In this document: piece after piece, positions 8,614-64,000 of the stretch | Layout: every line of letters starts with the position of its first letter | How positions within the stretch are numbered: the first letter of the stretch is position 1 | From: Bryobacterales bacterium | GTDB lineage: Bacteria > Acidobacteriota > Terriglobia > Bryobacterales > UBA6623 | Length of the DNA: 64,000 bases | Direction: 5' to 3' | NCBI GenBank assembly: GCA_965238125.1 | Contig: OZ250179.1 | Span: 5,237,271-5,301,270 of the forward strand | The notes under the pieces: generated by a model | The model's database searches: none | What the model was told of the DNA's origin: nothing | Seen by the model: the letters and a program-made list of their open reading frames with translations, nothing else | Position numbers and translations under genes: made by a program

Positions 8614-8657
8614 ACAGTAATCCTCAGACGAGCGCTATCTAGTTCGTTTCGGGGGAC

Positions 8658-26766: not shown

Positions 26767-27326
26767 ACGATCGTACGTTCTTCTTTGCGGGCTTTTTTTT
26801 AATGGCCGGCCAAGTCTTGCGCTGCCAGCCGCGGATGGCCTCTTCGTTGCGCTCCCGCGCTTTGCCGACGGGCCGTTGCGGGCTCCAACCGAGCGCCCGC
26901 AGGATCTTCCAGACATGGCCCTCGTGATAGCGCACGCCGAACTCGTCTCCGATCAGACGAGCGACCCGCGGACAGCTCCACAGCGGCGTCGGGAAGCCGT
27001 GCGCCTCGGGGCCTTCCAGCAGCAACGCCTCGAGGCGTTCGAGCTGCGCGGCGTCCAACAGCGGCTTACGGCCGGCGCGGCCGGCCTGGCGCAACCCGGC
27101 TTCGCCGTCACGCCGGTATCGTCGCAGCCACTCGCTGACGCTTTGCCGCGCGACCTTCAATCGCCTCGCTGTCTCGGACTGACTACAGCCTTGCTCGACC
27201 AACCGGATCGCTTTGAAACGGCGCTTCTCCAGGGCCTCGAAATCCCGCCGTACGCCTTTTGTATTTCCCATACATACAAAGACGTACGTACCCCAAAAAA
27301 GTGTCACTTTATTTTGCGAGACTCAA
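26767..27326 (-). mobile_element. IS630-family copy 3: 5' half only
   Basis: Near-identical to the orfA half of copies 1 and 4, from the right IR (TA at 27327-27328) to about 25 nt beyond the slippery run (26793-26800). The DDE half is deleted. Confidence 0.85.
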
Positions 27327-28601: not shown

Positions 28602-28603
28602 TA

Positions 28604-30487: not shown

Positions 30488-30905
30488 GCCCCGACTCTCC
30501 TCGCACTCTACGACGCCGTTTCATCGAGTTCGGCCCGCCCGACTCGCGACTTGGTTCCCCAAAAGCACCGGCAAACATCACGTTGTCTCCCCGCGTCACA
30601 AGGACGACACCGCTGAAGTCTCGGTGTAACGCGCGACGAGTCTTTCGATCCCTTGGGAGATTGCGGTGTCTTCCGATTGAGCGGCCGGTTCAGGCCCGTC
30701 CCGCAGGCAAGCAGTCAATCGGAACAAGAGTCTAATCCACATTTGCCCACAACATGCAGAACTCTCTCCCCTGCCCCTTCACCGAGCCTCTCAGCGATCT
30801 TGTAGTGGCTGATGGTTTTGCCAATCAAGATGGGGACATTGTACCGCTACGAGGGATTGGTGTTGATAACAATCGTTCCGTCCATCAATCGGATTTTTCA
30901 GCTCA
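30488..30905 (-). repeat. Inverted-repeat copy A2: kinase 5' module + serine-hydrolase 5' fragment
   Basis: Partner of 2741-3128. Partial box TGATAACAATCG at 30864-30875, TACAAT (minus) 30843-30838, 9 nt, TTG 30828, LIGKTISHYKIAERLGEG, then MWIRLLFRLTACL...FSGVVLVTRGDNVMFAGAFGEPSRE with frame breaks. Confidence 0.75.
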
Positions 30906-31764: not shown

Positions 31765-31939
31765 GCTTGGTGTTCTCCATGCGCCAATCCGAGATTAGGT
31801 CTCGAAGGAGACCGCCTTCACCGAGCTTGGCGAGGAGCTTGAAGTGGGAGATGGTTTGGCCGGTCATGCCGGTCCAATTCTTACTGTTGCGAACAATCGA
31901 TGTCACCAACAATGTGCGGGCGCACCGTCAAGCCCTTGG
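31765..31939 (-). repeat. Kinase 5' module copy placed directly upstream of DoxX, cut by IS1380
   Basis: Box GAACAATCGATGTCACC at 31891-31907. AAGAAT (minus) 31882-31877, 9 nt, ATG 31867, MTGQTISHFKLLAKLGEGG, then non-kinase sequence and the DoxX ATG 47 nt later. The upstream spacer is interrupted at 31940 by IS1380. Confidence 0.7.
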
Positions 31940-37493: not shown

Positions 37494-37670
37494 CACTCCC
37501 TTGTTCGATCACCCGAGCTTGGCCGCTCCTCCGATCCCCAATACGACGTTTCGGCCGACGGGCAAGGCTTTATCATCGCCACGCCGGTCGAAGACGCGCC
37601 CGGCGCCAAGCCGATGATCCGCGTTGTAATGAATTGGGCCGAAGAGTTCCGCGACCGCGAGGGGGACTAA
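37494..37670 (+). pseudogene. Solo 3' remnant of a kinase-TolB gene
   Basis: TPLFDHPSL... then QYDVSADGQGFIIATPVEDAPGAKPMIRVVMNWAEEFRDREGD-stop (37668-37670). Confidence 0.65.
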
Positions 37671-37714
37671 CTTCATGCACACCAGTCAGTTGAGGCTCTC
37701 CCGAACTTAGATGT

Positions 37715-37921
37715 TGGGAAATCGGGTTCGCATGAACAATCCGGCAGATAAGCGTCTTCACCGCCCTTGACGGACCCGGAAACCGAGCGGACGCAGCGTC
37801 CTGGACGAAAAAATTTGTCTGTTTGTGACATCGATTGTTATTAACAGCAATCCTGCGGCGGTGCCCTGAACCGGAAAACTCAAAGAGCCGCGAAAGTTAT
37901 TCTACGGCCACGGATGTAGGG
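37715..37921 (+). repeat. Inverted-repeat copy B2 (junction-module spacer + box + 3' extension)
   Basis: Near-identical reverse complement of 8407-8613. Box TGTGACATCGATTGTTATTAA at 37824-37844. Confidence 0.85.
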
Positions 37922-47563: not shown

Positions 47564-48072
47564 GCAAGTATTGTGATTGCCAGCCGGCCAGATTGCCGGG
47601 AACGCCCAGCAGGACGACACCCCAAAAGACCGGATCGTGTACGAGTCCGGTCTTCTTTTCTATCCGCCACGAAGTTTTGGCGAACCACAGGCGCGCCGCC
47701 GGGGCATGGGGTACGAAAATCATGGAAGAGTTGATCTCCCTGGTTGAGTACGACTGCATCGTCACAAGGCTCTCTCAACCCGTCAAGTTGCTCTTCCCCC
47801 CGGCGCTCGGCTGCGGCCGTTGAGGGTGCATCAAGTCTCCCGAAGACTCGCTGGCCACACCAGTCTCCGCTGGCCGGTGTTGACCGATGACCTCCGCGAA
47901 CCAGTGGGCTCCGCACGGTGCTCCAGGGCGGCGTTCTGGCGAAAAGCATGTCTCGAATCCAAGGGGACCTCCTGCTGCGAAAACAGTAGGTACAAATAAT
48001 CCGTAACTCCTTAGATCACAACGCTTCCCCTCATATTTGTAGTTAAATATATTGTTTACAATAGTTTATTCG

Positions 48073-48101
48073 TTGACATCGGGTGCCAGTCAGGGTACAA
48101 T
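48073..48101 (+). promoter_or_regulatory. Sigma70-like promoter candidate TTGACA-17 nt-TACAAT upstream of the P4-type integrase
   Basis: TTGACA 48073-48078 and TACAAT 48096-48101, in a locally AT-rich stretch. Two further TTGACAT copies at 48129-48135 and 48140-48146. Confidence 0.45.
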
Positions 48102-48169
48102 GAAAGCCAGACCGTACCCATACGCTCGTTGACATTGTGTTGACATGAAATGGTGCCGTCGCCTGCCCA

Positions 48170-49372
48170 GTGAAGGCCGCAAAGCTCACCGAGAGAAGCA
48201 TCAAGAGCCTGCCGAATCCCTCGGAAGGCAACACCGTTGCATGGGATTCGGAATTGTCGGGCTTCGGCATCCGAATCACGCGAAACGGCGCAAGGAGCTT
48301 CATCCTCAACTACCGGAATCAGGCAGGCATCCAGAGACGCCTGACGATCGGTCGGTTTCCAACGCTAAGCGCTACGGCGGCGCGACTGCGCGCACGCGAA
48401 CTGAAGGCTCAGGTCGAGTTGGGCGGCGACCCACTGGAAGTGAAACGCACGCGCCGGGGCGAGATGTCCTTCGGGGAGCTGGTGGACCTCTTCTCTAAGC
48501 GCTTGTTGGCCAATCAGAAGCGTGGATACGAGCGCGAGCGCCTTCTCCGCCGGGACGCGATCCCGTGGTTCGGCACGAAGACCAAGGCAGTCGATGTCAA
48601 GCGCCGTGATGTCATCCACCTCGTCCAAGAAAAAGCCGTCACCTCGCCGATCGCGGCCAATCGTCTTCTCGGCGCGATTCGCCGCCTTTACAATTGGGCA
48701 ATCGAGCAGGACATACTCGAGGCAAACCCGACCACGCTCATCAAACGTCCCGGGGACGAGAAATCACGTGACCGCGTCTTGTCCGATGACGAGATCGCGG
48801 CGTTCTGGGGGAAACTGCCATCGACAAGGCGGATGGGCGAAGCCGTGCGGGTTGCTCTGCGGCTCATCCTGCTGACGGCGCAGCGACCCGGTGAAACTTG
48901 TTCCATGGAGTGGGACGAATTGGACCTGGAGCTTGGCTGGTGGGCGATCCCTCGGGAAAAGACGAAAGGGGATAGGGCACACCACGTGCCGCTCAACGAT
49001 CTGGCGCTTGAAGTACTTGCCGGTTGGCCGCGCGGCGACGGCCCGTGGGTATTCCCTTCAAAACGAGGCAAGCCCTTGAAGGTCCTCGCACCCTCTCAGG
49101 CCGTGCGGCTCAACCGCGGGCACTTCGGCCTACCGCGATTCACGCCTCACGATTTGAGGCGCACGGCGGCAAGTCATCTGGGTGCGGTCGGCGTAGACCG
49201 TTTTATTCTCGGTCGCCTGCTGAATCACAGCGACCGCGAGGTCACGGGCATCTACGACCGCTATACGTACGACAAGGAGAAGAGGCGTGCGATGGAGAAG
49301 TGGGCGACGAAGCTCCGCAGAATCCTTGGGCGCGAGGTGGATCAAGAGAAAGTTGTCTCGATTGGCGACTGA
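48170..49372 (+). CDS. P4-type tyrosine integrase (DUF4102 N-terminal domain)
   Basis: 400 aa from a GTG start. LTERSIKSLPNP...VAWDSELSGFGIRITRNGARSFILNYR, ...RPGETCSMEWDELD, HVPLN, HDLRRTAASHL, LLNHSDREVTGIYDRY. Confidence 0.85.
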   Translation: MKAAKLTERSIKSLPNPSEGNTVAWDSELSGFGIRITRNGARSFILNYRNQAGIQRRLTIGRFPTLSATAARLRARELKAQVELGGDPLEVKRTRRGEMSFGELVDLFSKRLLANQKRGYERERLLRRDAIPWFGTKTKAVDVKRRDVIHLVQEKAVTSPIAANRLLGAIRRLYNWAIEQDILEANPTTLIKRPGDEKSRDRVLSDDEIAAFWGKLPSTRRMGEAVRVALRLILLTAQRPGETCSMEWDELDLELGWWAIPREKTKGDRAHHVPLNDLALEVLAGWPRGDGPWVFPSKRGKPLKVLAPSQAVRLNRGHFGLPRFTPHDLRRTAASHLGAVGVDRFILGRLLNHSDREVTGIYDRYTYDKEKRRAMEKWATKLRRILGREVDQEKVVSIGD

Positions 49373-49475
49373 TGACTGATCGCTCAGCTTCAAGGGCCGG
49401 GCTTGCCACTGCGCTTCAGAACCCCGGGCCACTTTGTCCTAAGTCTCCAGTGCGTCCTCACACGTCCTTCAGCCC

Positions 49476-49547
49476 CGATTGTTGGTGACATCCGGATATC
49501 CCGACAGTTATCCGCGAACAAGCGCTATGTAGTTCCTTTTAAGCGAC
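49476..49547 (-). repeat. Junction-module spacer block immediately downstream of kinase-TolB gene 2
   Basis: CGATTGTTGGTGACATCCGGATATCCCGACAG..AGCGCTATGTAGTTCC aligns with 8583-8650, 52336-52378, 53545-53600 and 59668-59722. Confidence 0.5.
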
Positions 49548-52186
49548 TTAGCCCTGCTCGCGGCCGCGGAATTCTTCGTACCAATTCTGTACAACGCGGA
49601 TGAGAGGTGGAGGAGGTTTCACGAGCGTCTCCACCATCACAAACCGCTGCCCATCGGCGGATACCTCGTAGTGGTGCCCTCGACCAAGGGCCGCATCCCG
49701 GTCGTCAAAGAGCCGTCTCTCTGAGCCTCGCGAAAAGGTGGGCCTTGTCGTCACGGAAACCGCCACCAGCGTGTCGCCCTCCAGGTAGAACAGCTCCTCC
49801 CCACGCCAGCGCGGCTGCCGTCCGCCATTCGTCGAGACCTGCCGTTTGCCGCCACCCCGGGGAAACGGCTGGACATAGACCTCGTGTTGACCCGATTCAT
49901 CCGATTCGTAGGCCACGAATTTCCCGTCCGGCGAGAGTTCGGGAGCGAGGACATCGAATGGGCTGTCGAGAAACACCCTCTTCTCGTAACCGGCCGCACC
50001 TTCTCTTGGCTGCATGTACCAGATGTCCGGTTCTCCGTCGCCTACCACGTATTTCCCATCCGAACTCCAATCGGTCTCCCACTCGTTTATCGGCGTCGCC
50101 AGCAGTAGTTCCGCCTGTCCACTTCCGTCGGCTGCTCTGACGAATATGTCCATATTGCCGTTGCGGGAGGATGCGAACGTAATCTTGTCGCCCTTCGGCG
50201 TCCAACTCGGTTTAGTTATATCTGACGGGTCGAAACTTAGACGGGTCTTGAGTGGCCGGGCGACGTCATGGATCCAGATGTCCCAACTTTCGTTTTCCAA
50301 GGCCCTGACAACGACACGGCTGCCGTCCGGGGAGAGAACAGGCATCTGAATGTCCCGCTGTGGCCGGCCGATGACGTCAACCTTTTTACCACTCCTGTCG
50401 CGCCAAACCACCTGCTTCAGGCCGGTCCGCGCCTCCGTGCGGTAAAGCAGCGTGCCGTCGCCGGCAATGCTGGGATAGGAGGCATTCTCTTGGATAGGAA
50501 ACGGCTCGCCGTTCGTCGTCAAGGTCTCAACGGAAAAGGGCAAAGCCCAAAGCTCAGTAGCCCTCTGGTACACAATATGCCCGTCGGAGAATAGAAAGGC
50601 CGGTTTCCGAAGGCTATTACCTCTCGCTTGCCGCTCTCCAGGTTCTGCAGCACGAGGCGCTCTTCCTGTTGCTCGCTGATGACAAAGAGTAGGCTGCCGC
50701 TGCCGGCTTCCTGAGGCAAGAAATGGGGGCTCACAAATAATTGCCGCTGTTCTGACTCCTCCGGCTCGAACAAGAGCTTGGGCGTCCCTCCTTGGGAGGG
50801 TATTTGATACAACCTCTCCGGGGCGCCCCCGCTGAAGACGATCGTGTTGCCGTCCGGGCTCCAAGCACCACCCATAAAGCCCAACCCATCTTGACCGGGC
50901 AGTTCACACAAGATGGTGCCGGGACCACCTTGAACCGACACCTTCTTCAGCTCCCCCCCAGAACGGAAGGCAATGAAATTGCTGTCTGCGGACCAGAATG
51001 GGTATAAGTATTGTCCGGGCCCCCCAACTTGCCGCAGCTCGTCTCGACCAAGGTCTTGGACCCAGAGAGAACGCGGAGTGGTGATGCTGGAGAAGTATGC
51101 AATGCGCCGCCCGTCGGGAGAGATGACAGGATTCCGGAAGAGATCCTCAGGCGCGAAGGTGAATCTCCGCAGAGGCAACTCCGGCGTTGATTCGGGCGCT
51201 CGGAGCCACAATCCCAGACTGATTCCGACCGCCCCAACCAGAAACACCACTGCCGCCGAAACCGCTTTGGAACGTGCAGGCTTCCTCGTTGCTTCCTCGG
51301 CCGAGCGAAGGGCTCGCGGCGCCGCAACAACCAGGCGCTTTGGCGCCGCCGCTGTTTTGGCTTTCCCCGAAGCCAGCTTCTTGCCCAGGGAGCGCAGGTC
51401 AACCAGAATATCTTCGACATGTTGATAGCGGTCGGGTGCTTCCTTAGCCAAAGCCTTGCCAACGATGAACTCCAACTCCATCGGCAGGCCCGCCCGCAAG
51501 GCGGTGATGGGTTCCGGCTCTTCATTGCCGATCGCATACAACACAGCTTCTTGCCGCTCGCCGCCAAACGGCAAGCGACCCGTCACCATCTCGTAGATCA
51601 CCACTCCCAGCGACCAAACATCGGTGCGCCGATCGGTCGGTTGCCGCAGCGCTTGTTCCGGCGACATGTAGGCCGGCGTTCCCAGGATCGTCGCCGTCTT
51701 TGTGAGTCTCGATTGCTCAGCGAGTTGCGCGAGGCCGAAGTCCATGATCTTGACCTGGCCGTCCTCGGTCAGCATCAAGTTAGCCGGTTTGATATCGCGG
51801 TGAACAATGCCCTTTTGGTGAGCCGCCTTCAAACCCTCGGCCGTCTGGGTGGCGATGTCGATCGCCTCTTCGAGCTTGAGCGGACGGTCGCCGATCTTGT
51901 CCTTGAGGGTTCGGCCAGCAACAAAGGCCATGGCGAGGAACGTTTGCTCCTCGGCCTCGTCGATCTCGTAGACGGTGCAGATATTCGGGTGGTCGAGCGC
52001 AGCGGCGGCCCGAGCCTCGCGAAGGAAACGCTCGCTGGCCTCGGCGTCTTCCGTGACTTCAGACCGCAGGAATTTCAGGGCGACAGACCGTTGAAGTTTG
52101 GTGTCTTCGGCTTTGTAGACGACACCCATACCGCCCCGGCCGAGTTCGGAGAGGATCTTGTAGTGGGAGATCGTTTGGCCGACCAT
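49548..52186 (-). pseudogene. Ser/Thr protein kinase + TM + TolB-like beta-propeller (paralog 2) with a frameshift
   Basis: [43 protein letters not shown]. Two overlapping ORFs (50519-52186, 49548-50864) join as ...GNRPFYSPTG|HIVYQRATELWALPFS... near 50573-50584. Ends LIRVVQNWYEEFRGREQG-stop. Confidence 0.85.
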
Positions 52187-52400
52187 GACAGCCCGATTCT
52201 ACCGTGATACAGATACCTGGTGATAACAATCGATGTCACAAACAGAAGGATTATTTTCGCCCAAGACGCCGCCCGGCGACGGTTTGCGACTCCGGCACGA
52301 CGTTCCGCCACGCTCCAGCGTGCGAAAGCGAGTGCCATCCGGATTTCCCGACAGTGGTCCGTGCATCAGCGCTATGTACCGGGCACCGTTTTCACATCCT
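52187..52400 (-). promoter_or_regulatory. Conserved kinase leader/junction module
   Basis: TAGAAT (minus) 52201-52196 with 9 nt to ATG 52186. Box TGATAACAATCGATGTCACA at 52221-52240. Spacer block CCGGATTTCCCGACAG..CAGCGCTATGTAC at 52336-52378. Confidence 0.55.
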
Positions 52401-52475
52401 CGCTCGATCGAGAAGACAGCAGCCGAGATCGGGTCCTAGATGCGGCCGCGGTGTGGCGCGAGCAGAGTAGCCATA

Positions 52476-53330
52476 ATGTCTTACATGCAACAGCTCCTTG
52501 CTTTTCTCTGCCTGACATTAGCTATTGGCGTGCCCGTCGCCGCGCAGCCGGCAGGTTGGACACAGCCTTTTCCCGGCCATCGCGTGATCGGCAACCTCTA
52601 CGCCGTCGGGACCTACGACCTGGGTGTGTTTCTCGTCACGTCATCGAAGGGGCACTTCTTGATCAATACGGGACTCGACGACTCGACGCCGCTGATCCGT
52701 AGGAATGTCGAGTCGCTGGGCTTTCGGCTGGAGGACGTCAAGATCCTGCTGACGATGCAAGCTCATTGGGACCATACGGCCGCGCTCGCCGAGATCAAGG
52801 AGATGATCGGCGCGGAGATGTGGGCGACTGCCGGCGACGCACCCGTTCTGGAAGATGGGGGTTTCAGCGATCCGCATTTCGGCGGAAAGGTGTCGTTCAA
52901 GCCGGTCAAGGTAGATCGGATTATCAAGGACGGCGAGGTGATCAAGCTGGGCGATAAGCAGTTGACCGTCGTGGAGACCCGCGGACACACGACGGGAAGT
53001 GTGAGCTATGCGATGAAGGTAAGCGAAGGCGGCCGCGACTACGACGTCGCGATCGCGAATATGGCTACGATCAACGCCGGCAAGCGGCTGGTGGTCGATC
53101 CGACGTACCCCGGTGTGGCGGAAGATTTCGTCGAGACGTTTCGCAAGCAGAAGGCAATGCCCGTCGAAGTGTGGGTCGCGGCACACGGCTCGCAATACGG
53201 CTTACACAATAAGTACAAGGCGGGGCAAGCCTACAGCGCCGAGACGTTTGTCGATCCGGAGGGCTATCGGGCCGCGGTACGGAGCTACGAGAAACTGTAT
53301 TTGGAGCAGGTGGCGGCGGAACGGCGCTGA
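52476..53330 (+). CDS. Subclass B3 metallo-beta-lactamase-fold hydrolase (Gln at the first zinc-ligand position)
   Basis: ATG 52476 (signal MSYMQQLLAFLCLTLAIGVPVAAQP). LLTMQAHWDH instead of HxHxDH, ETRGHTTGS, VWVAAHGSQ; the overall layout resembles L1/GOB-type B3 enzymes. Confidence 0.8.
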   Translation: MSYMQQLLAFLCLTLAIGVPVAAQPAGWTQPFPGHRVIGNLYAVGTYDLGVFLVTSSKGHFLINTGLDDSTPLIRRNVESLGFRLEDVKILLTMQAHWDHTAALAEIKEMIGAEMWATAGDAPVLEDGGFSDPHFGGKVSFKPVKVDRIIKDGEVIKLGDKQLTVVETRGHTTGSVSYAMKVSEGGRDYDVAIANMATINAGKRLVVDPTYPGVAEDFVETFRKQKAMPVEVWVAAHGSQYGLHNKYKAGQAYSAETFVDPEGYRAAVRSYEKLYLEQVAAERR

Positions 53331-53539
53331 GGGTCCATTTGAGCCTTCGGGTCTAAGCGGTTGAATCCCGAGTTCGCGTTTGTACTGGTAGCGCATAGAG
53401 GCGTTGTGCGGCTGCCGTAAATTCTCAAGGATTGCGACAGACTGCCGCAATCTTACACGGGCATCGTACAGGAAATAAAGAACTTAGGGAAGAGTCGGCC
53501 GTGGAAGCGTCGCCATTAAGGGGGGAAGGCGACGGGGAT

Positions 53540-53660
53540 TGTTGTACGGAACCGGATATCCCAACACCTATATTCAAACGGGCTCTATCTAGTTCAGCCT
53601 TTGAGGCTTAGAGCCTTAGTCCTGCTCGCGGTCGCGGAACTCTTCGTACCACTTTCTGGA
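53540..53660 (-). repeat. Solo junction scrap: last ~14 codons of a kinase-TolB gene + spacer block
   Basis: The minus strand reads ...[13 protein letters not shown]-stop (53616-53618), followed by GGCTCTAAGCCTCAAAGGCTGAACTAGATAGAGCCC...GGGATATCCGGTTCC. Confidence 0.5.
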
Positions 53661-53765
53661 TCGTAGCTGGCTGAAGTGCGGCTCTCCCTCTACCGATCCG
53701 CGCGTGTCCTCCAATTTGTCAGCACGAGAAGAGGTTAGTCCGTGGATCGGTAAACGGTTTTGTGC

Positions 53766-56070
53766 TCACTGTTCGAATAGCACCGGCAGATTCAACGGCG
53801 GATTCCGGCTGCCTTCGAAGTCGATCACCAGGGGCATGGTCGGCCCTGTTGTCACCAGGCTTTCCGGCAGTTGAATGTTGATCTGCGCGAGGCCCGCGAA
53901 GCGCGGCGTCAGGCCGGCGAACAAGACCTTCGCAGCCTCGCCGCCAACTGTGACCACGGGTGTCACCCGCGCCCGAGCGAGCGGCGAATCCGCTGTAGCC
54001 GCGCCCGTCGCGGGCGGATTGCTGACGCCGCCGATGCCGGTCACGAAGATGATGAGAACATCTCCCGGCTTGGCGGGATTAGCGGCGGTGATCAGCGCCT
54101 CGTCCGGGTGACGCTGGATGATCGGTTCGCCGCTGTTGGGGTTGATGAATACAGCCGGCGCGAACTCCGCCATCAGGACGGGCTCAATCGGGCTGTCTTC
54201 TCCATTACGCGTCACCACCACGTTGACTTGCCCGGGCGAGGTGACCTCGAAGGGAACCTGGAAGTTGATCTGTTTGGGCGAGACGAAGATCAGCGGCGCC
54301 TCCCAGCCGTCCAGGCGCACGCGAGCACCGCCCAACTCGAACGGTAGAGGCAGGTCTCCTCGGCCTTGAGCATATCGTCCGCCAGCTCGGCCCCGAAGAT
54401 GCTGCCGATCCCGCCAGGGGCGACAACCGCCTGGAATTGCGCCGCATCCACGATGCCAGCGGGCAAGATCGCCGGCGTTGTCGGGGGTTCCACGCCGCTG
54501 CCTTCCAAGGCGATCTCGACTCGCGGGCGGTTCGGATCATTCGACGAGATGATCAGCCGTCCGGTGAAATCGCCCAGCGACGGCGGGTCAAAAGCGATAG
54601 AGGGCGTAACCTGCTGCCCAGGGTTCAGCGTCAGTGCCTCCTGGCTGACGGGCGCCGGTGTCAGCGCCGCTACATCGGGGTCTTGGCGGAAGGCGTCGCC
54701 TTCGATAGTCAGTTCGACGCTCATCTCCACCTGGCTGCGGTTGATGATTTCAATCGGCAAGGCCACGGGTTCTCCAACCGGCGTGTCGCCGAAGTCCAGG
54801 GTTTCCGATTCCACGCCGACGAAGAGAATCGGCTGCTCCGGATCAAGTCCGGTGGCCTGCAGCATCACGTCCAGCGTCGGCTGGTCCGCGGCGTTCGAGG
54901 TCAGCGTCAGCGTTCCCGTTTCCTTCCCGGTCATGCCAGGGGTGAACTCAACGACAAAATCTCGCGACGTGCCGGCGCGCACCTGCATCGGCAGGTTCGA
55001 CAGCACCTGAAAGGCCGGGTTGTCTATGCCGGCGGAGTCGATCACCAGCGGACCCGTTCCGAGGCTCCTCACCTTGACGACGCCTTCGCTCAATTGCCCA
55101 ACGGGAGCGACGCCGAGGTCGGCCGGCGCGTCCACGGCAATGGCAGGCCTCTGAACGACGTTGAGCGGTCCGATCGTCTGTTCGGTCGTGTGGAAGCCGT
55201 CCGAGGCCTGCACCCGGAACAGCACGTTCTCGCCGCCTTCGATCAGAGCCGCGTTGAACGTCAAGGAGCTTCCCACGATATCGACGCCCAAGGGTAGCCA
55301 ACTTCCCCCGCCGTCGGGACTGTAGAGCGCGGCGAAAGTCAAAAGGTCGCCGTCCGCGTCGGAAGCTGTCCAAGCGATCGTGAGCGGCGTCGAAGCATCG
55401 AGGCTCGCGCCCGCGGTTGGCGAAGTGATCGCAAGCAACGGCGGGCTCGCGCTTGCGATGAGACTTGCTAACTCGTTGCTCCCTTGCATCAGGGCGATGA
55501 GGGTGCCGTCGGCGTGGTAAGGGAGAGCCGCTACGAAGGGCTGTTCGGAGCCGCCGCTGAAATCGGCGTCAAAGCAAGAGCGCTCGAGAACTCCGCCCCC
55601 GTTGCTCAGTTCGACGCAGCAATCTCCCGACTGTGGTCCGGGGGCAAGGAGCTTCGAGGCAGGGGCCCGATAGGCTGGATCGAGGCTCCCGCTCCCACCG
55701 CTGCGGACCGTTCCGCCGATGAGGAAAAACTCGCCGGGGTCGGCTTGCTGTTTTTCACGAAATGGCTGCCCGAGCGCCGCCGCCGAAAGCGGCGCGGCAA
55801 CAAACGGCCCGGTTAAAATTGTCTGAAAGAGGTTGATGTAGCTCGCGCCGGAAATCCAGCGATCGTCGCAAAACAGCTCCTTGACAACGAGTCCACCTTG
55901 GCTATCCAGGCCGAGTGCCGTGGGAAACTCGATACTACCCAAAGCCGGGCAAGGCCCGAGGACGTCTTCTGTCAGCACTTCGAATTCCCTAGCCAGCGCT
56001 ACAGCCAGTTCGATTTCCGCCTTCTCCCGCGGTCCCTCCGGCACGATAAAACTACCAAACACACTCTTGA
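53766..56070 (-). pseudogene. Large secreted protein, C-terminal part (choice-of-anchor-D/ASH-like Ig repeats + TIGR03437-type C-terminal domain), 3' of the IS1380 insertion
   Basis: ...LVIDSAGIDNPAFQVL...TLTLTSNAADQPTLDV..., ...IVDAAQFQAVVAPGGIGSIFGAELA... then (-1 shift near 54350-54360) ...LPLPFELGGARVRLDGWEAPLIFVSPKQINFQVP...AGLTPRFAGLAQINIQLP. The first 29 codons of track ORF 54290-56158 are IS sequence. Confidence 0.8.
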
Positions 56071-57737
56071 GCCAGGATTTCCATTTTGGCCCTGGCACGG
56101 TCACAGGATACACCCCCGCTGCGCCGAATACCACGTCTTTTCGCGCTGAACCCTGCACATCACCTCCGCCGGTAGGCGCCAGGGCTCGTCCGTCCGCTCA
56201 CAGACGTTGATTGAGCGGACTGAACGGCGCTCCGGCCGACACTGCTCCCTGCGAAACCTTTTTGGAGCCAAAAACTGTTGATCCTCGCCCGGGCAACGCT
56301 ACCCACCCGGCACAGGCAGCGCCCAGATCCTATGCAGCATGTCGCCGAACAGCCGCCGGTTCAGATGTCCTTCGGCCAACAGCAGCCAATAGTACCGCGC
56401 ATGCTTGACCAGCCTACCGCCCGTCTTCATCAGCCGCTGTTGCAAGCTCGTCAGCGACCAGCTCTTGATCCGTTGCGGCAGCCCGAGCCTCCGCCATAGG
56501 TTCCCCAGGTTATAGGCCAGCACGCTGAGTTGCAGTCGCACTTCGTTGGCCCGGAACCGATGGCATGACAGCCTTGTCCAATGCGTCGCTTGTTTGCCTT
56601 CCTTGATCCACTGCTCCGCCGTGCCGCGCTTGTTGTAGAACCGCACCAGCGAGCGGCTCGGCAAGGCCATGCTCGTGACGATGAAACCGACGCGAGGAAA
56701 CAACTCACCTTGGTGATGCTCGACCTTCGCAACAACCCGCCGGGACTTCGACCAACTCGCGGCCTGATACCGAAAGCTCCTGTAGCGCACCAGGGGCTTT
56801 GCGCTCGGCCTGCCCGGCGGACGAAACACGATATCTTCGATCTCCAGCTCCAGGCTCTTGTTGGCCGGGATGCGAATCACGTAGTCCACGCCGCGCTCCT
56901 CCAACGTCTCGTAAATATCCGGCTTGGTGAAGGCGGCATCGGCCCGGAACGTCACCTGTTTGCCCTCCGCCTGTTGGCGTTCGATTTCCGGCAGCAGCAG
57001 CTCGTCCCAGTCCTCGGCGCTGGACACGTTGCCCGGTCGCAACTTTGCCGCCAAGCAATCGCCGTGCTGGTTGAACAGCAACAGTGGGTGGTAGCAGACC
57101 GACTCGAAGTGGCCGTTGTAGGCGCTGCCTTCCTGCCGGCCGTGGACGGGGCTCTCGGTAGAGTCCATGTCCAGCACGACGCACGCGGAGTCATCACCGG
57201 CCTCGGCTTGCGCGATCAACTCGCGGTTCACCGCCATCAGCCCGATCAGATTCTCGTCGCCGGCGAGCATGGCGGTCTCGAAGCTCTGCAGCCGGGAGGT
57301 CAGCGCCGCGCCGCGATCCCAGTTCTTCTTCGAGCCAATCAGCCGAAAGGTTGGATCGGCGGAGACACGAACGGCGTCGTTGAGATCCTCGTAGCCCGCC
57401 AAGCGGGAGTAGACCGACTGTCGCAGCAGATCGACGAACGGGAACTTCTTGTTCGAGCCTTGCCGCGAATCCGTCAGATGCTCGTCTATCAGCTTGCCTA
57501 GTCCGAGTCGTTCGTCCAGTTCGCGAATGAGAATCAGCCCGCCATCCGAGGTGACTCGCGATCCTTGGAAATCGACCTTGAGAAATCCATTGAAGGTGAG
57601 CTGAAACGGTTTGTTTTCTTTTTCACCCATTGGGTGTTGATCTCCTCAGCGCCTTGAGTGCTTTCAAGCCCGCATAAATAAAGGCGTCCGAGTCCACCCG
57701 ATGGTTAGCAGAACCGAAACTAAAGTGGAAATCCGGG
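56071..57737 (-). mobile_element. IS1380-family insertion sequence, copy B (1667 bp)
   Basis: Same ends as copy A. 4-bp duplication TTGA at 56067-56070 and 57738-57741. Three amino-acid differences from the copy A transposase. Confidence 0.9.
56299..57630 (-). CDS. IS1380-family DDE transposase
   Basis: 443 aa, 440/443 identical to 32047-33378. Confidence 0.9.
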
Positions 57738-59524
57738 TTGAGAGGTCGTCTCAAAAGGATTTCCCGCGCAAGTTCTTCCTCGGTCGGATCCTCGATCGGG
57801 CCGGCCCACACAGCCACCATGTCCACGATGTCCCGCTGCACGAAGAGCACTGCTTTAAAGCCCTTGAGCACACCGGCTAGCGTGAAGCCACGGATTGGGT
57901 CGCCGAACAACCCCCCCGGCACCCCCAAGGGAATGTAAGCCACGCCCGAGGTCTCCGCCGCCGGAAACACTTTGCGCAGGAACCGGTCGGCACTGTGAAC
58001 ACCGTTGTCGCACCCATCAGGACAGGCTTCCAAGTATCCGATGGCAAGCGTCTCTCGCGGAAAAAACTCAAAACTTTCCGACTTCGTATTGTTGTCGGTG
58101 GAAGTCTCCTCGACGATCGGATCGCCGCTTCCGTCCAAGTTGACTGTCGCCGTCAAAAGCAAGTCTTCGACTTGTGTCCATTCCCTGGGAAGAATGAAGT
58201 TTCCCGAAACCTCGAGCGCCCTTCGAAAGCTCGACATTCTAGCGTCCGAGTTAAGTGTTACCCACGGGAACCGGGTGAACCCGCCGACAGGGTCCAGCAA
58301 GGGGCCATCCGGCCCCGCCCGGCCTCGCAGGTTGACCGGCACACTGGGACCGAAAGATACACCCTCCGGCAGATTCGCGACCTGGGGATACACTCGCACG
58401 ACAGTCCGCTTGTCGGTGACCATCGGGATCACGTTGTCGTCCGTCTGCACCGCCTGATTGATTTCGATATGGCGAACCGAGTAATCCACTCCCTCCGGCC
58501 CTTCGCCGATAGTCCACACCCCCAGGCCGACGGACTCGAGGGTGCGAAAAATTTCTTCCACGGGGTTATCAGGCGTCCAGCGCACGTAGATGTCATACGG
58601 CCCGAGGATGTTTCGTTCTTGGGCACGAGCTTCGTCGAAGAATGCGTCGATGCTAAATACCAGACGCTGCTCGTTGATGACCTCCAAACCGCACATGTTG
58701 AAAGTGTTGCTGAACGGCTGCTCCACGCAGGGAAAATCACCTCCTGGAAAGAAGTTGGCGGAACGGCGGAGGTCGATGTCGTTCGACCGCAAAAGATGTA
58801 CCGTAATTCCCTCTGCCTCATCGAATCGGGCGCCCGGAACGTTGACGAAGACCTTCTGACGCGTGTTCAGCGGCTGGTTCTTGATCGCGCCGAGGCTTAG
58901 TGGGGCAGGTTCCTCGACCTCATAGATCTGCACCAGTAATCGTGCGACCTCTGTTTCGGTTGGTACGCCGTCCTGGAACGTCCGCTCAATCGCGATTGCC
59001 GTGACCGCCAAGGCCGTGGGGATTTGCAACAAGCTCTGCTCTAATGTTTGCGGCTTGCCGGCACAGAACCCGCCGAACTCACAGCTCACCGCGGGGATGC
59101 TGAGCGGCAGCGAACTCGAGCCTACGTTGTTCTCGTCCCAGTTGAGAGCGCCATTTTCGGCCTTTGAGGTGAAACCGGGCGTCTCGCCCGACGTTGCGCT
59201 GGCAATGAAATCCGCCCCTTCGGATTCGACCAGCATTTTGACCCCGCCGAATTGAGGCGGATTGATCACACGCACCTGCACCTGGGCAAAAAACACGTCG
59301 CCTGGATAGAGAGTGCCGGTGTCGGGCAGGACGCTGATGAGTTCAAGCGATGTGCCCTGCGCCGCGGCGCTGAAGGCGGCCGCATGCATCAACAACGCAA
59401 GTGCAAGAGCCAGCCGGATGAGGCTCGGCGTTGAGGACGTGTCCTCAGCCTTGTAGACGACACCCATCCCGCCTTCGCCGAGCTTCTCGGTGATGCGGTA
59501 GTGGGAGATGGTTTGGCCGATCAT
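57738..59524 (-). pseudogene. Same large secreted protein, N-terminal part, carrying a grafted kinase N-terminus
   Basis: [29 protein letters not shown] (kinase module) followed directly by [28 protein letters not shown] (signal-peptide-like), then non-kinase extracellular sequence. The frame continues ...LLRRPL|KSVFGSFIVPEG... across the IS. Confidence 0.8.
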
Positions 59525-59733
59525 GCCGGTCCAATTCTACCTTGTTACAGATTGGTGTTGATAACAATCGATGTCACAAACAAACAGATTTTTTTCGTCC
59601 AGCGTGCGCCCTCGGCTTGGGTTGAGGGTCCACCGAGAGGCCGTGATACGTCTTGAGTCTCGGATTCGGAGTGCGAACCGGATTTCGCGACATCAATCCG
59701 CAAACAGGCGCTATGTAGTTCGTTTCGAGGGGG
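59525..59733 (-). promoter_or_regulatory. Conserved kinase leader/junction module (complete copy)
   Basis: TAGAAT (minus) 59539-59534 with 9 nt to ATG 59524. Box TGATAACAATCGATGTCACA at 59559-59578. Spacer block CCGGATTTCGCGACATCAATCCGCAAACAGGCGCTATGTAGTTCGTTTCG at 59668-59728. Confidence 0.55.
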
Positions 59734-59930
59734 TTAGTCCTGCTCGCGGTCGCGGAACTCTTCGTGCCAGTTTTGGACGATGCGGATAGTGGTTGGCGTC
59801 TCAAGGCAACGGGGCGGCGCAACACCGTGTCCTCGGCCTTGGAGACGACCCCCATACCGCCCTCGCCGAGCTTCTCGAGGATCTCGTAGTGGCCGATCGT
59901 CGTTCCGACCAAGATAGTGGAATTGTACCG
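59734..59930 (-). pseudogene. Mini kinase-TolB relic: start + 40 N-terminal codons joined to the last 19 codons
   Basis: TACAAT (minus) 59927-59922, 9 nt, TTG 59912, [37 protein letters not shown], junction near 59791-59800, then (other frame) [18 protein letters not shown]-stop (59734-59736). Confidence 0.7.
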
Positions 59931-59955
59931 CTGAGCAGCGAATTGACTGACTACC

Positions 59956-60729
59956 CTACCGAGAGCTGGGGAGAAGTGTGGTGTCGCGCGCTTCGCCGGG
60001 ACGCAAAGTCCGACCCATCTCGCGGAAGAAGGTCTTTCCCCCTGTCGCGGAGTCAAACAACTCGAACATCGAGTTGATGTTCTCCAAAGGCGCCCACTGG
60101 GTCATATGACATTGCATCGAGGCCAACTCCTGTGCGCCGTACTTCGATCCATCGATCTCGGCCGTGATGAAGCGATCGTCGACTCGAGCCATTCGCGCTG
60201 GGACCCCAGGTTGACCGGGCTCTTCGGCGGGGAGCGACGCTGGCAGAGCAACGAAGTAGAGTCTCGACATTCGGTGCTGCGTGTCGGATGAGAGAAATAC
60301 CTGGGTCGCAATGTCGCCGACTAGACGATGGTCGCGATGCCCTGTCGCCCCGTCAGGTCCCAAGGTGATCATCACGTCCGGCTTGAGCTCCTCGACAATG
60401 TCGCGCAGCCGATCGCGAATCCCCTGCATGGTGGCTGACTCGTAGACCTTTCCGTCCTGGAACTGCAGCAAGATAGGTTCGTGAATCCCGAGCTTCTGAG
60501 CCGAGCAACGCGCTTCTTTCTCTCGAGCGGCTCCAAGCTGCGGACCGGCGGGTATGTCAGTGTTGGCCACACCGGCCTGACCTGACGTTGTGGTGACGAG
60601 GTAAACATCATGCCCCTCGGCCGCGTACCGGGCGAGAACGCGGCCAACGCTAGTCTCGTCGTCAGGGTGTGCGAACACGGCAAGAAGGGTGGCCGCAGGC
60701 GTACAGGGAACCAAAAGCAAGACGAGCAA
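59956..60729 (-). CDS. PIG-L family deacetylase (LmbE-like)
   Basis: [39 protein letters not shown] start as in the track; the start is uncertain. Confidence 0.8.
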
Positions 60730-61080
60730 AAAGCTGCTGAGTCGCCATGTCGTTCAAATCCGGCGGAGCTATCGTACTACGAACATCCGAGTCTTGTAGG
60801 TCGGAGGCACTCATACCCCCGCACGGCGGGGGCATCCAGACTGTCGGCTTTCTTGCTTCAACTGACGCTCCGGGACTACTAGTGAAAACCACCGATCCGT
60901 TGAAAGATCCGATCGTACCACGCACGGGCCGTTGATTCAGCTCGGCTTTTGACTCGGTCGATGAAGGTCTGGGTGCTCTAGGTTGCGGAAACAAGTGTGT
61001 TCCGGATTTCGCGCCACCTATCGAAGAGAAGCAGAGCGGAGTCCCAGCCTACGTTGCGAGTCACTGTAGACTGTGAGGCG

Positions 61081-61749
61081 ATGAACTCGGTGCCATCAGT
61101 CCGATTCGGGGGCGGCTGTGGAATAGTCGGATGCGTGATCTTCGTCGCTGGCACGCTGATCCACCCGATGCAGGCGGATCCGAATGATGACCTGGCCGCT
61201 TTCACAGAGTACGCCGCCGATAGCTCTTGGGTCGCGAGTCACTTGATGCAGTTTTGCGGCTTTCTGCTCATCGTTCTTGCTTTGCTCGCGTTGGACCGCT
61301 TGATGCGGCCCGCCCGCGCACGGTCCTTCTCATCTTTTGGGTCGTTTGTGGCGGTTGCCAGCCTGGCGGTCTTAGCGGCCCTCCAGGCAGTAGACGGGGT
61401 CGCCTTGAAAATGACCGTCGATCAGTGGGCTCAAGCTCCTGAATCAGAAAGGCCCGACCTGTTTGCAGCTGCGATTGCCGTCCGCCGAATCGAGATCGGA
61501 TTGGCAGCGCTGTGGTCGCTTGTCACTGGTGTTGCGGTGGTTCTGTTCGGGCTAGCTACAACCCTGAGCGACAACCTGCCACGCTGGTCCGGCTACGCCG
61601 TAGCTCTGGCGGGAGTGTTCTCCTGCGTCGGCGGCGTCGTGATGGCCCATGAGGGATTCTCGGCGACCGCGATGAATATCAACTTGTCGGCGCTGATTGT
61701 AATCGCTTGGGTCGCGTACATGAGCGTTCTGATGTTGAGGCGCTCCTGA
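61081..61749 (+). CDS. Hypothetical integral membrane protein (about 6 TM)
   Basis: ORF 60997-61749; likely ATG 61081. Hydrophobic helices throughout; no family recognised with confidence. Confidence 0.5.
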   Translation: MNSVPSVRFGGGCGIVGCVIFVAGTLIHPMQADPNDDLAAFTEYAADSSWVASHLMQFCGFLLIVLALLALDRLMRPARARSFSSFGSFVAVASLAVLAALQAVDGVALKMTVDQWAQAPESERPDLFAAAIAVRRIEIGLAALWSLVTGVAVVLFGLATTLSDNLPRWSGYAVALAGVFSCVGGVVMAHEGFSATAMNINLSALIVIAWVAYMSVLMLRRS

Positions 61750-61886
61750 ACTTAGTGGGCTGGTCGCTGATAAGCGGGATTCCCATCCATTGAGCCGGTT
61801 CCCACCAAGCGCTGGATGCGCTGACGGTGGGGATCCCAACGAAGCGAGGGAACTGGGTGCTCGATTGTGACATCCGGGGATTCTTC

Positions 61887-63320
61887 GAGGATGTCCGATA
61901 GTTCGTAGAAAGTAGCGACTCTCCGCTCCGGGCCGATAGGCTCGGAGGAGTTTTTGTTTTTCGGAAAAAGGAGAGTCGCTATGAAGAGACAATATCAGAT
62001 CGACCGCGAGAACGCGGTCCGCCGATTCCGCAAGCAAGCCGAACAGAGCGAGCAGGAGTTGCAGCTGGACTTGCCGCTCAAGGAGGTCGCCGCCGCGTTG
62101 CAAGAAGGCGTCGGTCACTTGATGCGCCAGGCGGGCTTGGAACTCATGCAGCTCATCATGAGCAACGAGGTGCGCCATCTCGCCGGCGAACGCTACGAGC
62201 GCCGCGAGCCGGAGCAGCCTTTCCGCTGGGGACGCGAGAAAGGCTTTCTGGTCGTCGACGGACAGAAGGTTCCCATCGAGCGTCCGCGGATGCGCGGCCA
62301 GGACGGGCGCGAGCAACGCTTGGGCAGCTACGAGTTGTTTCGCCGCTCCGAACCGCTCGATGCCGCCGTTTGGGACAAGCTGATGCTGGGGCTGTCGACG
62401 CGCAACTATTCGAAGGCCGTGCGCGAATTCGCCGCATCCTACGGCATCGAAAAGTCTGCGGTGAGCGATCATTTCGTGCGCCTGAGTCGCGAAAAGCTGC
62501 ATGAGCTTGTGGAGCGTCCGCTGGACAAACTCAAGCTCTGCGTGATCTATCTCGACGGCATCGAGTTCAAGGGCCAACATCTGATCGTGGCTCTGGGAGT
62601 CGCCGTGGACGGGGCCAAAACGGTTCTCGGGCTACGGCAGGGCGCGAGTGAGAACGCGACAGTTGTCGGCGAGTTGCCGGATGATCTGGTCGAGCGCGCG
62701 GTCGACTTTTCCGTTCCCATGCTGTACGTGTTGGACGGTTCGAAAGCACTGAGGAAGGCGGTGCGTAAGCATGCCGGGAGCCAAGCGTTGTTGCAGCGGT
62801 GCCCGTTGCACAAGCGTCGCAACGTGACGGCTCATCTACCGGAGCCATACCGCAACGCGGTGGAGCGCAAGATGATCAACGCCTATCAGATGGCCCACTA
62901 CGACGATGCCAAGAAGGCGCTGCAGCGGTTGCACCGCGAGCTGATGGAGTTGAATCCGTCGGCGGCGCGCTCGTTGGAGGAGGGAATGGAGGAAACGCTG
63001 ACGGTGCATCGGCTCAAGATCGACGGCTTGTTGCGTCTGACGCTGACGACAACGAACCCGATCGAGTCGGCCTTCTCGACGGTCGATCGCATTTGCAGCC
63101 GAGTCAAGTGTTGGCGGCGCGGCGATCACCGCGAGCGCTGGGTGGGAGCCGGTCTGTGGCTGGCGGAGAGAAGCTTCCGTCGCGTGAAAGGTTACAAGCA
63201 GTTGCCCCAGCTGTTGGCGCAACTCGCTAAGCTCGACACACCACCTCCGGCTCAGGCCCGCGTGGCGTAAACTACAACCTGCGGAGAGCCGCGAGTTTCA
63301 ACGGAAATCCGGACATCCTC
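61887..63320 (+). mobile_element. IS256-family insertion sequence
   Basis: Imperfect terminal inverted repeats GAGGATGTCCGATAGTTCGTAGAAAGTAGCGACTCTCCGC / GAGGATGTCCGGATTTCCGTTGAAACTCGCGGCTCTCCGC (reverse complement of the right end). No 8-9-bp duplication recognisable. Confidence 0.75.
61981..63270 (+). CDS. IS256-family (Mutator-type) transposase
   Basis: ATG 61981; about 429 aa. LCVIYLDGIEFKGQHLIVALGVAVDGAKTVLG, MLYVLDGSKALRKAV, LQRCPLHKRRNV, TTNPIESAFS. Confidence 0.9.
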   Translation: MKRQYQIDRENAVRRFRKQAEQSEQELQLDLPLKEVAAALQEGVGHLMRQAGLELMQLIMSNEVRHLAGERYERREPEQPFRWGREKGFLVVDGQKVPIERPRMRGQDGREQRLGSYELFRRSEPLDAAVWDKLMLGLSTRNYSKAVREFAASYGIEKSAVSDHFVRLSREKLHELVERPLDKLKLCVIYLDGIEFKGQHLIVALGVAVDGAKTVLGLRQGASENATVVGELPDDLVERAVDFSVPMLYVLDGSKALRKAVRKHAGSQALLQRCPLHKRRNVTAHLPEPYRNAVERKMINAYQMAHYDDAKKALQRLHRELMELNPSAARSLEEGMEETLTVHRLKIDGLLRLTLTTTNPIESAFSTVDRICSRVKCWRRGDHRERWVGAGLWLAERSFRRVKGYKQLPQLLAQLAKLDTPPPAQARVA

Positions 63321-63557
63321 AAAAACAGCGAACCAGTGGCAGAGCGCCGTGAATGCCGGTCCGTCGAGACTCGTCAGTAGGCCGAGCTGCTCGAGTTCGG
63401 CGGCGTTTTCGTCCCAGACGACCTTCGCTTCGTCCGTCAACCAGCCGGGACATTCAGGAGCGGCGCCGCTCGGCTGCGGAACCTTCGGAAGCGGTCGCTT
63501 CGAAGGGTTTCCTTCTAACTCGCGGATCGGGACGGGTTTCGGCGGTCTGCCACGCAT
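63321..63557 (-). pseudogene. Phage terminase small subunit (P27 family), 3'-truncated by IS256
   Basis: MRGRPPKPVPIRELEGNPSKRPLPKVPQP...CPGWLTDEAKVVWDENAAELEQLGLLTSLDGPAFTALCHWFAVFE, then IS256 end sequence. Confidence 0.65.
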
Positions 63558-63895
63558 GTTTCACTCCCTGAAAGGTGCGGTATCAATTGATACCGCACCT
63601 GGCAAAAGCCACCCATGGGTCGTATTTGAGAGGGGGGCAAAAGCTGCGCATGCGCAGCTTTTGACAGGATCGAATGATTTGCGATCGCCATCAGACGTCG
63701 TGCGGTACTTTCGCCGAACGGTAGACGATCGCGGATCATTGGTTCAAACTCCCCGTGCGATAGTGTGCCTTCGCCCCCAACAGCAGCTTCTCGACAAACA
63801 AGAAAACTTCCAATTTCGCGAAAACTCGCGCGTGTGGGACGCGTGGTCTTGGTGCGCTGAGACTCCAAGGATTCGACCCGCCCCCGGTATCTCAT
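63515..63895 (-). CDS. DUF3102-like phage protein (possibly decayed at the 3' end)
   Basis: ...EIGSFLVCREAAVGGEGTLSHGEFEPMIRDRLPFGESTARRLMAIANHSIL...LLPPS resembles DUF3102. The ORF then runs through the palindrome and overlaps terS. Confidence 0.45.
   Translation of the reverse strand: MRYRGRVESLESQRTKTTRPTRASFREIGSFLVCREAAVGGEGTLSHGEFEPMIRDRLPFGESTARRLMAIANHSILSKAAHAQLLPPSQIRPMGGFCQVRYQLIPHLSGSETCVADRRNPSRSAS
63573..63600. repeat. 28-bp perfect palindrome AGGTGCGGTATCAA|TTGATACCGCACCT
   Basis: Each half is the exact reverse complement of the other. Lies 16 nt upstream of the terS ATG (minus strand). Confidence 0.9.
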
Positions 63896-64000
63896 TGTTC
63901 ATCAACTACTTACATTCACTCCCTAGCCGCTCGACAATCCGACTTGTCAAGTGGTGGACCAATTGGTACCGGACTTGCGGCGGCCGTGGCGAACAACGCC

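Follow-up and report, generated by a model that had tools for sequence, protein, structure and literature searches.

How does a gene for a secreted protein come to begin with the codons of a protein kinase? The question is raised by a gene on the minus strand of a 64,000-nt stretch of DNA (hereafter the window; contig OZ250179.1 of assembly GCA_965238125.1, positions 5,237,271 to 5,301,270 of the forward strand) from a soil acidobacterium of the order Bryobacterales. A preliminary description of the window proposed that this gene opens with 29 codons of a kinase, fused in frame to the signal peptide of a secreted protein of the TIGR03437 type, and that the gene's own 5' end had been exchanged for that of the kinase in a form of promoter and start capture. 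Comparison with related sequences indicates that the chimeric 5' end is genuine, the promoter and start of a kinase standing in place of the native start. The fused gene is now a pseudogene in the source strain.

The chimeric 5' end

The fused open reading frame (ORF) starts with an ATG at 59524-59522 and comprises 633 codons, the last 38 of which belong to an insertion sequence (IS) of the IS1380 family; the positions of its parts are collected in Table 1. Codons 1-29 match the start of the window's intact Pkinase+PD40 kinase with 80% identity over 30 aa (tblastn, E 4e-10) and the start of a full kinase at the related locus L002 with 87% identity over 85 nt (E 4e-24), and are kinase-like at both the DNA and the protein level, as first proposed. 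The match to NCBIfam kinase models is confined to residues 4-32 of the fused ORF, and the Pfam Pkinase domain, for which the intact window kinase scores E 1.3e-52, was not found in the 633-aa ORF. Of the features that mark a Hanks-type kinase, the Gly-loop stretch alone is present, and the VAIK lysine, the HRD loop and the DFG motif are missing, in keeping with the earlier statement that no catalytic motifs follow the graft.

Homology to kinases stops at 59438/59439, and homology to genes for secreted proteins starts at 59430 (position 38 in the native gene). This places the switch at 59437-59431, a few bases from the earlier estimate of about 59433-59436. The first 2 nt of the junction may still derive from the kinase, to judge from the alignments, and the other 5 nt would be filler. 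The pentamer CTCAA within the junction (tcCTCAA, 59431-59437) recurs as the target duplication of the IS1380 element (57738-57742), 1.7 kb downstream, which may be a coincidence. Microhomology at the window junction was also considered, and stayed speculative. Beyond the junction, the hydrophobic core (h-core) of the signal peptide and the AAAQG site, previously described as AxA-like, are both present and are kept in homologues. Each of the two parts of the ORF has separate homologues: kinases in the case of codons 1-29, and secreted proteins without those codons in the case of the remainder.

The native gene in relatives

A homologue search with residues 30-633 yielded 12 proteins, all from metagenome assemblies at the ENA, four of which (P0001, P0002, P0003 and P0011) include the N-terminus. 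All four begin with MLTWCRPFFAARPPSLIRP or close variants (the N-termini read MLTWCRPFF..., MLAHHGPPF... and MLARHRPFY...), and the kinase residues occur in none of them. A conserved promoter-like sequence, TTGTAG-18-TAGACT, stands before the gene at the native loci L001, L003 and L004, together with a Shine-Dalgarno (SD) sequence, GGGAGG, and an ATG; the window copy lacks all three. Because the homologues start natively and carry no kinase codons, the native 5' end has evidently been replaced: in the window copy the promoter, ribosome-binding site and start codon are gone, together with 12-13 codons, and the kinase leader with 29 codons has taken their place. The native neighbourhood, seen at L001, L003, L023 and L024, has a gene for an MR_MLE enzyme upstream and a response regulator gene downstream. 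No pieces of a kinase were found in these four neighbourhoods, and their genomic context differs from that of the window.

These comparisons bear on two other explanations. If the 29 residues were a genuine conserved N-terminal domain of the secreted-protein family, a view favoured by nothing but the ORF itself, homologues would be expected to carry them; they are absent from four of the four that retain an N-terminus, and the stretch, kinase-like as DNA and as protein, directly follows a matching kinase promoter. This view is refuted and can be set aside with near certainty. An assembly or sequencing artefact, namely a chimeric read or a mis-join at the repeated kinase start, is highly improbable. 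The kinase start is a multi-copy repeat, and the relatives come from low-coverage long-read metagenome assemblies (1.27x-8x, according to the contig names), both of which would favour such an error. However, the junction lies at the edge of the repeat and not inside it, analogous junctions occur in other genomes, and the window is matched over 16.4 kb by a second contig from an 8x assembly. The exact 633-aa fused protein is recorded on two contigs, one of 6.92 Mb (NCBI and ENA) and one of 24.9 kb (ENA, 8x coverage), the latter being 100% identical to window positions 47623-64000.

No further fused allele was found in the protein collection, in which the cluster of the fused protein consists of itself and one mid-gene fragment, and an exact-match scan of JGI metagenomes returned zero matches to the junction 30-mer and zero to the promoter 19-mer. 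The fused allele is a singleton.

Leader and promoter of the kinase module

The leader in front of the fused ORF, which had been reported as a complete module, is homologous across its full length of 209 nt to other copies in the window and at loci of related metagenome-assembled genomes (MAGs). Its parts are an A-tract, a conserved core (GTGACATCGATTGTTATCA), a -35-like hexamer (TCAACA, 59561-59556) and a -10 hexamer (TAGAAT, 59539-59534) that ends 9 nt ahead of the ATG; an SD sequence is absent. On the evidence of consensus and conservation only, a promoter scan identified TCAACA-16-TAGAAT as the sole promoter-like site in 59300-60100, and no separate promoter for a downstream start was seen there. 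About 20 aligned copies have one fixed layout (A-tract, core, -35-like hexamer, a -10 of the form TAnAAT, and no SD sequence), with the -10 ending exactly 9 nt before an ATG, GTG or TTG start. Because of this fixed spacing, we infer that the transcript from the kinase promoter is nearly leaderless. The core was found at 13 loci in three MAGs of Bryobacterales (Acidobacteriota), CBDDCY, CBDCHL and CBDFIU, in addition to three chance matches; this census of modules is small and is anchored on one 19-mer.

Rfam detected no RNA family in the window at gathering thresholds, so the leader does not correspond to any known RNA element. Its first part (e.g., 59640-59733) contains a motif, ATAGCGC..GGAT(T/A)ACTGTCG(C/G)GA(A/T)ATCCGGTTCGCA..AACAATCC, that is repeated after kinase stop codons; it holds a short palindrome and could be a protein-binding site. 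A hairpin seen by eye in this part was dropped from consideration, the consensus fold of 13 copies being structureless (-0.07 kcal/mol). Directly upstream of the leader lies a "hollow" kinase relic (Table 1), whose start and end resemble full kinase A of L002 (80% and 91% identity, respectively).

Predicted effect on export

Signal peptides of the Sec pathway comprise a basic N-terminal region (n-region), a hydrophobic h-core and a cleavage site of small residues. The n-region of the native protein is 19 aa long with charges of +3/-0 (three Arg), whereas that of the fused form is 34-37 aa long with charges of +4/-4. The h-core (mean Kyte-Doolittle hydropathy of 2.56) and the AAAQG site are kept, and one Arg still stands beside the unchanged core. 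Judging from the charge of the n-region, export of the fused form is probably weakened, and not necessarily abolished.

Expression would have to begin at the kinase promoter, and translation at the kinase ATG. Met20, preceded by GAAGG, is a possible second start, and none of the downstream in-frame starts would preserve the whole signal peptide. The kinase residues would make up a long non-basic n-region before the unchanged h-core and AAAQG site, at the price of less efficient export. As they would be removed together with the signal peptide at cleavage, the mature protein should be unchanged; and since the portion that holds the graft is one that cleavage normally discards, the graft would be cheap to tolerate.

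Inactivation of the fused gene

The preliminary description gave the fused ORF about 1150 aa of continuous extracellular-type sequence. This proved incorrect, as an interruption by an IS1380 element and a 2-nt frameshift had been missed. The transposase of the element matches NF033539 (E 2.7e-108), and the ends of the element read CCCGGATTTCCA... and ...TGGAAATCCTGG. The window contains a second copy at 31940-33605 on the plus strand that is 99.76% identical, and 5-bp target duplications flank both: CTCAA in the fused gene (57738-57742 and 56067-56071) and CTTGG at the second copy. In-silico removal of the element and one duplication restores ..LLRRPLKSVFGSFIVPEGPREK.., matching the homologues, and the frame is then open for 1187 codons. 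Further on, the 2-nt insertion splits the TIGR03437 domain: model positions 41-224 are matched with an E value of 6.8e-51, and positions 1-35 lie in the preceding frame. With both the IS and the 2-nt insertion removed, the repaired gene would be 1361 codons long.

Counts of nonsynonymous and synonymous changes on the terminal branches were 14/16 for the window gene, 10/12 for L002 and 19/26 for L003. By this branch-specific count there is no excess of change on the window branch, and no sign of long relaxed selection. Because the counts reveal no long relaxation of constraint, the fusion, the IS insertion and the frameshift are all recent. The IS insertion and the frameshift inactivated the gene later than the fusion or at about the same time.

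Kinase stubs in the window and in related genomes

Short stubs of the same kinase promoter and start precede unrelated genes across the window and three Bryobacterales MAGs (Table 1). In about 17 copies the breakpoint falls within kinase codons 2-38, and each is then followed by unrelated sequence. The genes behind the stubs are co-oriented and mutually unrelated (DoxX, a GDSL lipase, an acetamidase, a histidine kinase, an ATP-grasp protein and secreted proteins). A stub runs in frame into a real gene in 3 of ~19 cases (window, L002 and L018-1709), which is about chance level; general selection for in-frame grafts was rejected on this ground. Breakpoints in the G-rich Gly-loop codons 15-24 (GGCGAAGGCGGGATGGG; e.g., window 59455-59482) account for 7 of ~19. 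When the sequences after ten junctions were compared with each other, no shared mobile-element end was found, and this excludes a site-specific element that inserts into kinase starts. Orphan mid-kinase fragments were not found. The L002 junction shows possible microhomology (AAGGCG) with the native upstream region.

At the DNA level, the full kinases of the window, two in number, are conserved only over the final ~54 nt of the coding sequence, in the leader and over the initial ~110 nt; their bodies are only 51% identical in protein. Kinase 1 is interrupted by an in-frame TAG (9529-9527), and kinase 2 by a change of frame near 50528-50588, close to a run of C and T, which could be a real frameshift or a long-read error.

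Several copies have features of their own. In the stub at 31811-31912 the promoter is internally deleted, and the second IS1380 copy lies directly upstream; the DoxX gene (31755-31327), in the same orientation, overlaps the end of the stub ORF that starts at 31867. A co-oriented gene for a GDSL lipase (30440-29679) is located ~390 nt after the stub at 30828. The leader-only copies, at 8476-8711 (minus strand) and 37617-37852 (plus strand), consist of a kinase 3' end and a leader with a mutated -10 (GGTGCCCTG), and no kinase start follows; as they have ~95 nt in common beyond the leader, the decayed module itself appears to have been duplicated. At locus L018 (940-5942), in a Bryobacterales MAG, a stretch of 6 kb contains four modules. 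Each of them is followed by a co-oriented gene of a different kind, and no intact kinase lies between them. The genes concerned are a small ORF, an acetamidase with a signal peptide (in frame with its 12-codon stub), a histidine kinase and an ATP-grasp protein.

Table 1. Parts of the fused gene and its surroundings, and kinase stubs in the window and at related loci
Feature	Positions	Strand	Kinase codons	Remarks
"Hollow" kinase relic upstream (stub start 59912)	59734-59912	-	38	TTG start; 38 codons run out of frame into the last ~20 kinase codons and stop
Kinase-type leader/promoter module	59525-59733	-		209 nt, between TAA (59736-59734) and ATG
Kinase start of fused ORF	59438-59524	-	29	beta1, Gly-loop, beta2; ends before the catalytic VALK lysine
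Junction (tcctcaa)	59431-59437	-		Placed by ends of aligned segments and comparison with native and kinase sequence
Retained native part of signal peptide	59354-59430	-		(P)SLIR, 14-residue h-core, SAAAQG; native codon 13 onward
N-terminal part of secreted protein	57738-59353	-		No Pfam family; 84-89% nt identity to L001, L002, L003
IS1380-family element	56072-57737	-		1666 bp; interrupts gene at 57737/57738
Middle part of secreted protein	54361-56071	-		Choice-of-anchor D and Ig-like (Cep192_D4/ASH) domains
2-nt insertion	~54359-54360	-		GAGGAG vs GGAG in four homologues; frameshift at start of TIGR03437 domain
TIGR03437 (Soli_cterm) C-terminal domain and stop codon	53766-54358	-		Stop codon 53768-53766
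Kinase 3'-end remnant, then first part of leader	53549-53660	-		Remnant 53654-53615; just downstream of secreted gene
Stub, start 31867	31811-31912	-	19	Then DoxX gene
Stub, start 30828	30776-30898	-	18	TTG start; TACAAT-type promoter
Leader-only copies	8500 and 37828		none	-10 mutated
L002 stub			15	
L009 stub			80	
L011 stub			21	
L012 stub			~208	
L013 stub			~28	
L014 stub			9	
L015 stub			35	
L016 stub			28-29	
L018 stubs			23, 12, ~7 and 2-3	
L019 stub			6	
L020 stub			2	

Origin of the fusion

As far as can be read from the sequence, the 5' end corresponds structurally to promoter and start capture of a known kind, and would be an ordinary product of recombination. Of the capture set out in the preliminary description, the structural half stands, the native 5' end having been replaced; a working, selected arrangement is unsupported, the gene being split by an IS and frameshifted, the allele a singleton, the n-region no longer basic and most of the sister stubs out of frame and without continuation. 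In the proposed course of events, the leader, start and first 29 codons of a Pkinase+PD40 Ser/Thr kinase paralogue would have been joined to codon 13 of the gene for a ~1361-aa secreted choice-of-anchor-D/TIGR03437 protein, the joint spanning 5-7 nt, with loss of the native promoter-like region, SD sequence, ATG and basic n-region. This would be one event in a pattern, seen in these genomes, of kinase promoter/start stubs before unrelated co-oriented genes. Our best reading, to which we assign a probability of roughly 0.6, is that the 5' end was replaced by illegitimate recombination or deletion in an IS-rich and pseudogene-rich region, with no sign of selection. The window contains several IS families, and both of its full kinases are broken.

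A number of observations weigh against replacement by chance. The breakpoints cluster strongly in the first 40 codons, and neither this clustering nor the recurrent association of kinase modules with the same genes is explained by random deletion; either selection or a specific mechanism could lie behind them. Following the fusion, the frame remained open over 1187 codons. At L002 a full kinase, a leader and a stub are present; the stub abuts the 5' untranslated region native to this secreted gene and reads in frame into the native ATG, and it is a different stub, from a module only ~74% identical to that of the window. L020 carries its 2-codon stub before a paralogue. It is chiefly this recurrence at three loci (window, L002 and L020) that speaks against simple random deletion as a full explanation. 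In addition, a relative with an intact kinase directly upstream of the secreted gene, representing the state before fusion, was not found (L002 also has the stub alone), so that the deletion has to be inferred.

The L020 gene (165-5629, minus strand) encodes a paralogous secreted TIGR03437-type protein with its own SD sequence and signal peptide. An IS630-like element splits the gene, which over its final 761 nt and the 35 nt that follow the stop codon is 91% identical to the window gene; a kinase 3' remnant and a leader come next. Such a remnant follows the stop codon of the secreted gene at all three loci (window, L002 and L020). The modules of the window and L002 are only ~74% identical and the secreted genes 88%, and therefore either the junctions arose independently or modules were exchanged; the closest relative of the window module is that of L013 (89%), in a different context.

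Selection could account for some of these features. An adaptive capture, in which the fusion was selected for the kinase promoter and start and the IS and frameshift are later strain-specific accidents, fits with the in-frame fusion, with a promoter module that is intact and near consensus, with the 1187 codons open once the IS is removed, and with terminal-branch counts that are not raised. It also fits with the presence of kinase modules at three different junctions in one gene family (window, L002 and L020), and with a graft that lies wholly upstream of the cleavage site and would leave the mature protein unchanged. Nevertheless, we consider it unlikely, though not far-fetched: the allele is known as a singleton, two lesions inactivate the gene, the n-region has lost its net positive charge and in-frame stubs (~3/19) are no commoner than chance. 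The native promoter and SD sequence of the homologues look functional, and the need for a capture is therefore not evident.

A specific mechanism is the other candidate. The module, which runs from the final ~54 nt of one kinase through a ~210-nt leader into at most 114 nt of the kinase after it, might be an actively spreading promoter cassette, or a set of recombination arms by which kinase bodies are swapped for cargo. It is exactly these flanks, and nothing else, that the two full kinases share as conserved DNA; at three loci (window, L002 and L020) the cargo is bracketed by a 5' stub and a 3' remnant; in L018, 6 kb of sequence accommodates four modules with a different gene behind each; and the window module is nearer to L013 (89%, other context) than to L002 (74%), with cargo genes that are 88% identical. 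The relic at 59912-59734, with its 5' and 3' parts directly joined, would be an "empty" kinase. Against this, the module ends are ragged and not precise, terminal repeats, target duplications and shared post-junction sequence are all absent, and no recombinase is linked to the modules. Some copies are decayed (mutated -10 at 8500 and 37828, internal promoter deletion at 31867), and the sample is small, with its one 19-mer anchor and zero matches in the JGI metagenomes. We therefore rate a cassette of this kind as improbable. The same long odds apply to its extension, by which the module may be a self-propagating cassette or recombination arm in Bryobacterales that rewires the expression of its cargo, the Gly-loop breakpoints being a recombination hot spot. 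Under a cassette mechanism, the position of the start codon at the 5' end of the transcript would mean that a capture tends to carry kinase codons along, and occasionally grafts them.

Replacement by illegitimate recombination or deletion thus remains the reading that we prefer.

Mobile elements in the window

The genome of a related Solibacter is known for large families of paralogues and many near-identical mobile elements (PMC3174227). Mobile elements are unusually abundant in the window. Identical (100%) repeats of 300 nt or more form a three-copy family (13835, 26766 and 29136) and a two-copy family (13301 and 28602), which are probably IS copies; the repeat regions span 13301-14134, 26766-27065 and 28602-29435. 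A gene for an IS256-type transposase is located at 61954-63270. A tyrosine integrase gene (48170-49372, plus strand) abuts a leader copy (49492-49601) that aligns to the leader of the fused gene for 68 nt only, and the joint of kinase end, leader and integrase is found again with 90.6% identity over 1164 nt in a Bryobacterales MAG (L007, 5514-6677). It might be an island integrated next to the leader. There are no tRNA genes in the window, so the integrase is not beside a tRNA gene.

Comparison with known systems

Long N-terminal extensions are familiar from the extended signal peptide regions of autotransporters, where the extension is a conserved family motif. The fused protein is similar in that a long extension precedes an otherwise normal signal peptide with n-, h- and c-regions; it differs in that the extension is a recent graft from a kinase and is absent from homologues. 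Elements of the IS1380 family such as ISEcp1 supply promoters. Here, too, an IS1380-family element lies in the same gene, and the 5-nt junction filler (CTCAA) equals its target duplication, but the element, a simple insertion flanked by a duplication of its own, lies 1.7 kb away from the junction and is not the promoter source.

Promoter capture combined with fusion by deletion has been demonstrated, along with selection and phenotype, in experimental evolution of Pseudomonas fluorescens (Lind et al. 2015, PMC4395868; Farr et al., bioRxiv 10.1101/091744). As in those cases, a gene's own 5' region has been swapped for the promoter and N-terminal codons of a neighbour in what would be a single rearrangement, of a type that can change the location of the protein. 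In contrast, the residues grafted here sit in a cleavable signal peptide. The locus is a clear natural example of a gene whose own promoter, ribosome-binding site and start have been replaced by those of an unrelated neighbour.

Gene fusions born by deletion have been described with fixation documented, and with expression in one case (Kaul et al. 2026, bioRxiv, PMC12803068). The present fusion resembles them in that a structural change placed fragments of two unrelated genes in one frame, and in that relatives still show one partner unfused. It differs in that no pre-deletion locus was found, the upstream partner contributes only 29 codons and the product is already a pseudogene. Taken alone, the fusion adds another instance of a known process, in a gene that is already dead, and the recurring stubs are the more interesting lead.

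The stubs are best compared with putative mobile promoters, defined as upstream sequences of at least 50 nt and at least 80% identity before non-homologous genes of one genome, for which the mechanism is unknown (Matus-Garcia, Nijveen and van Passel 2012, PMC3488235). The pair 59469-59538 and 31812-31881, 84% identical over 70 nt and followed by the secreted protein gene and the DoxX gene, respectively, falls within this definition, although part of the shared sequence is the kinase stub itself. The modules differ from putative mobile promoters in being derived from a kinase, with a variable length of kinase coding sequence and with a kinase 3' end. If the pattern of stubs proves to be systematic, they would provide a well-defined family for studying the spread of promoters within genomes.

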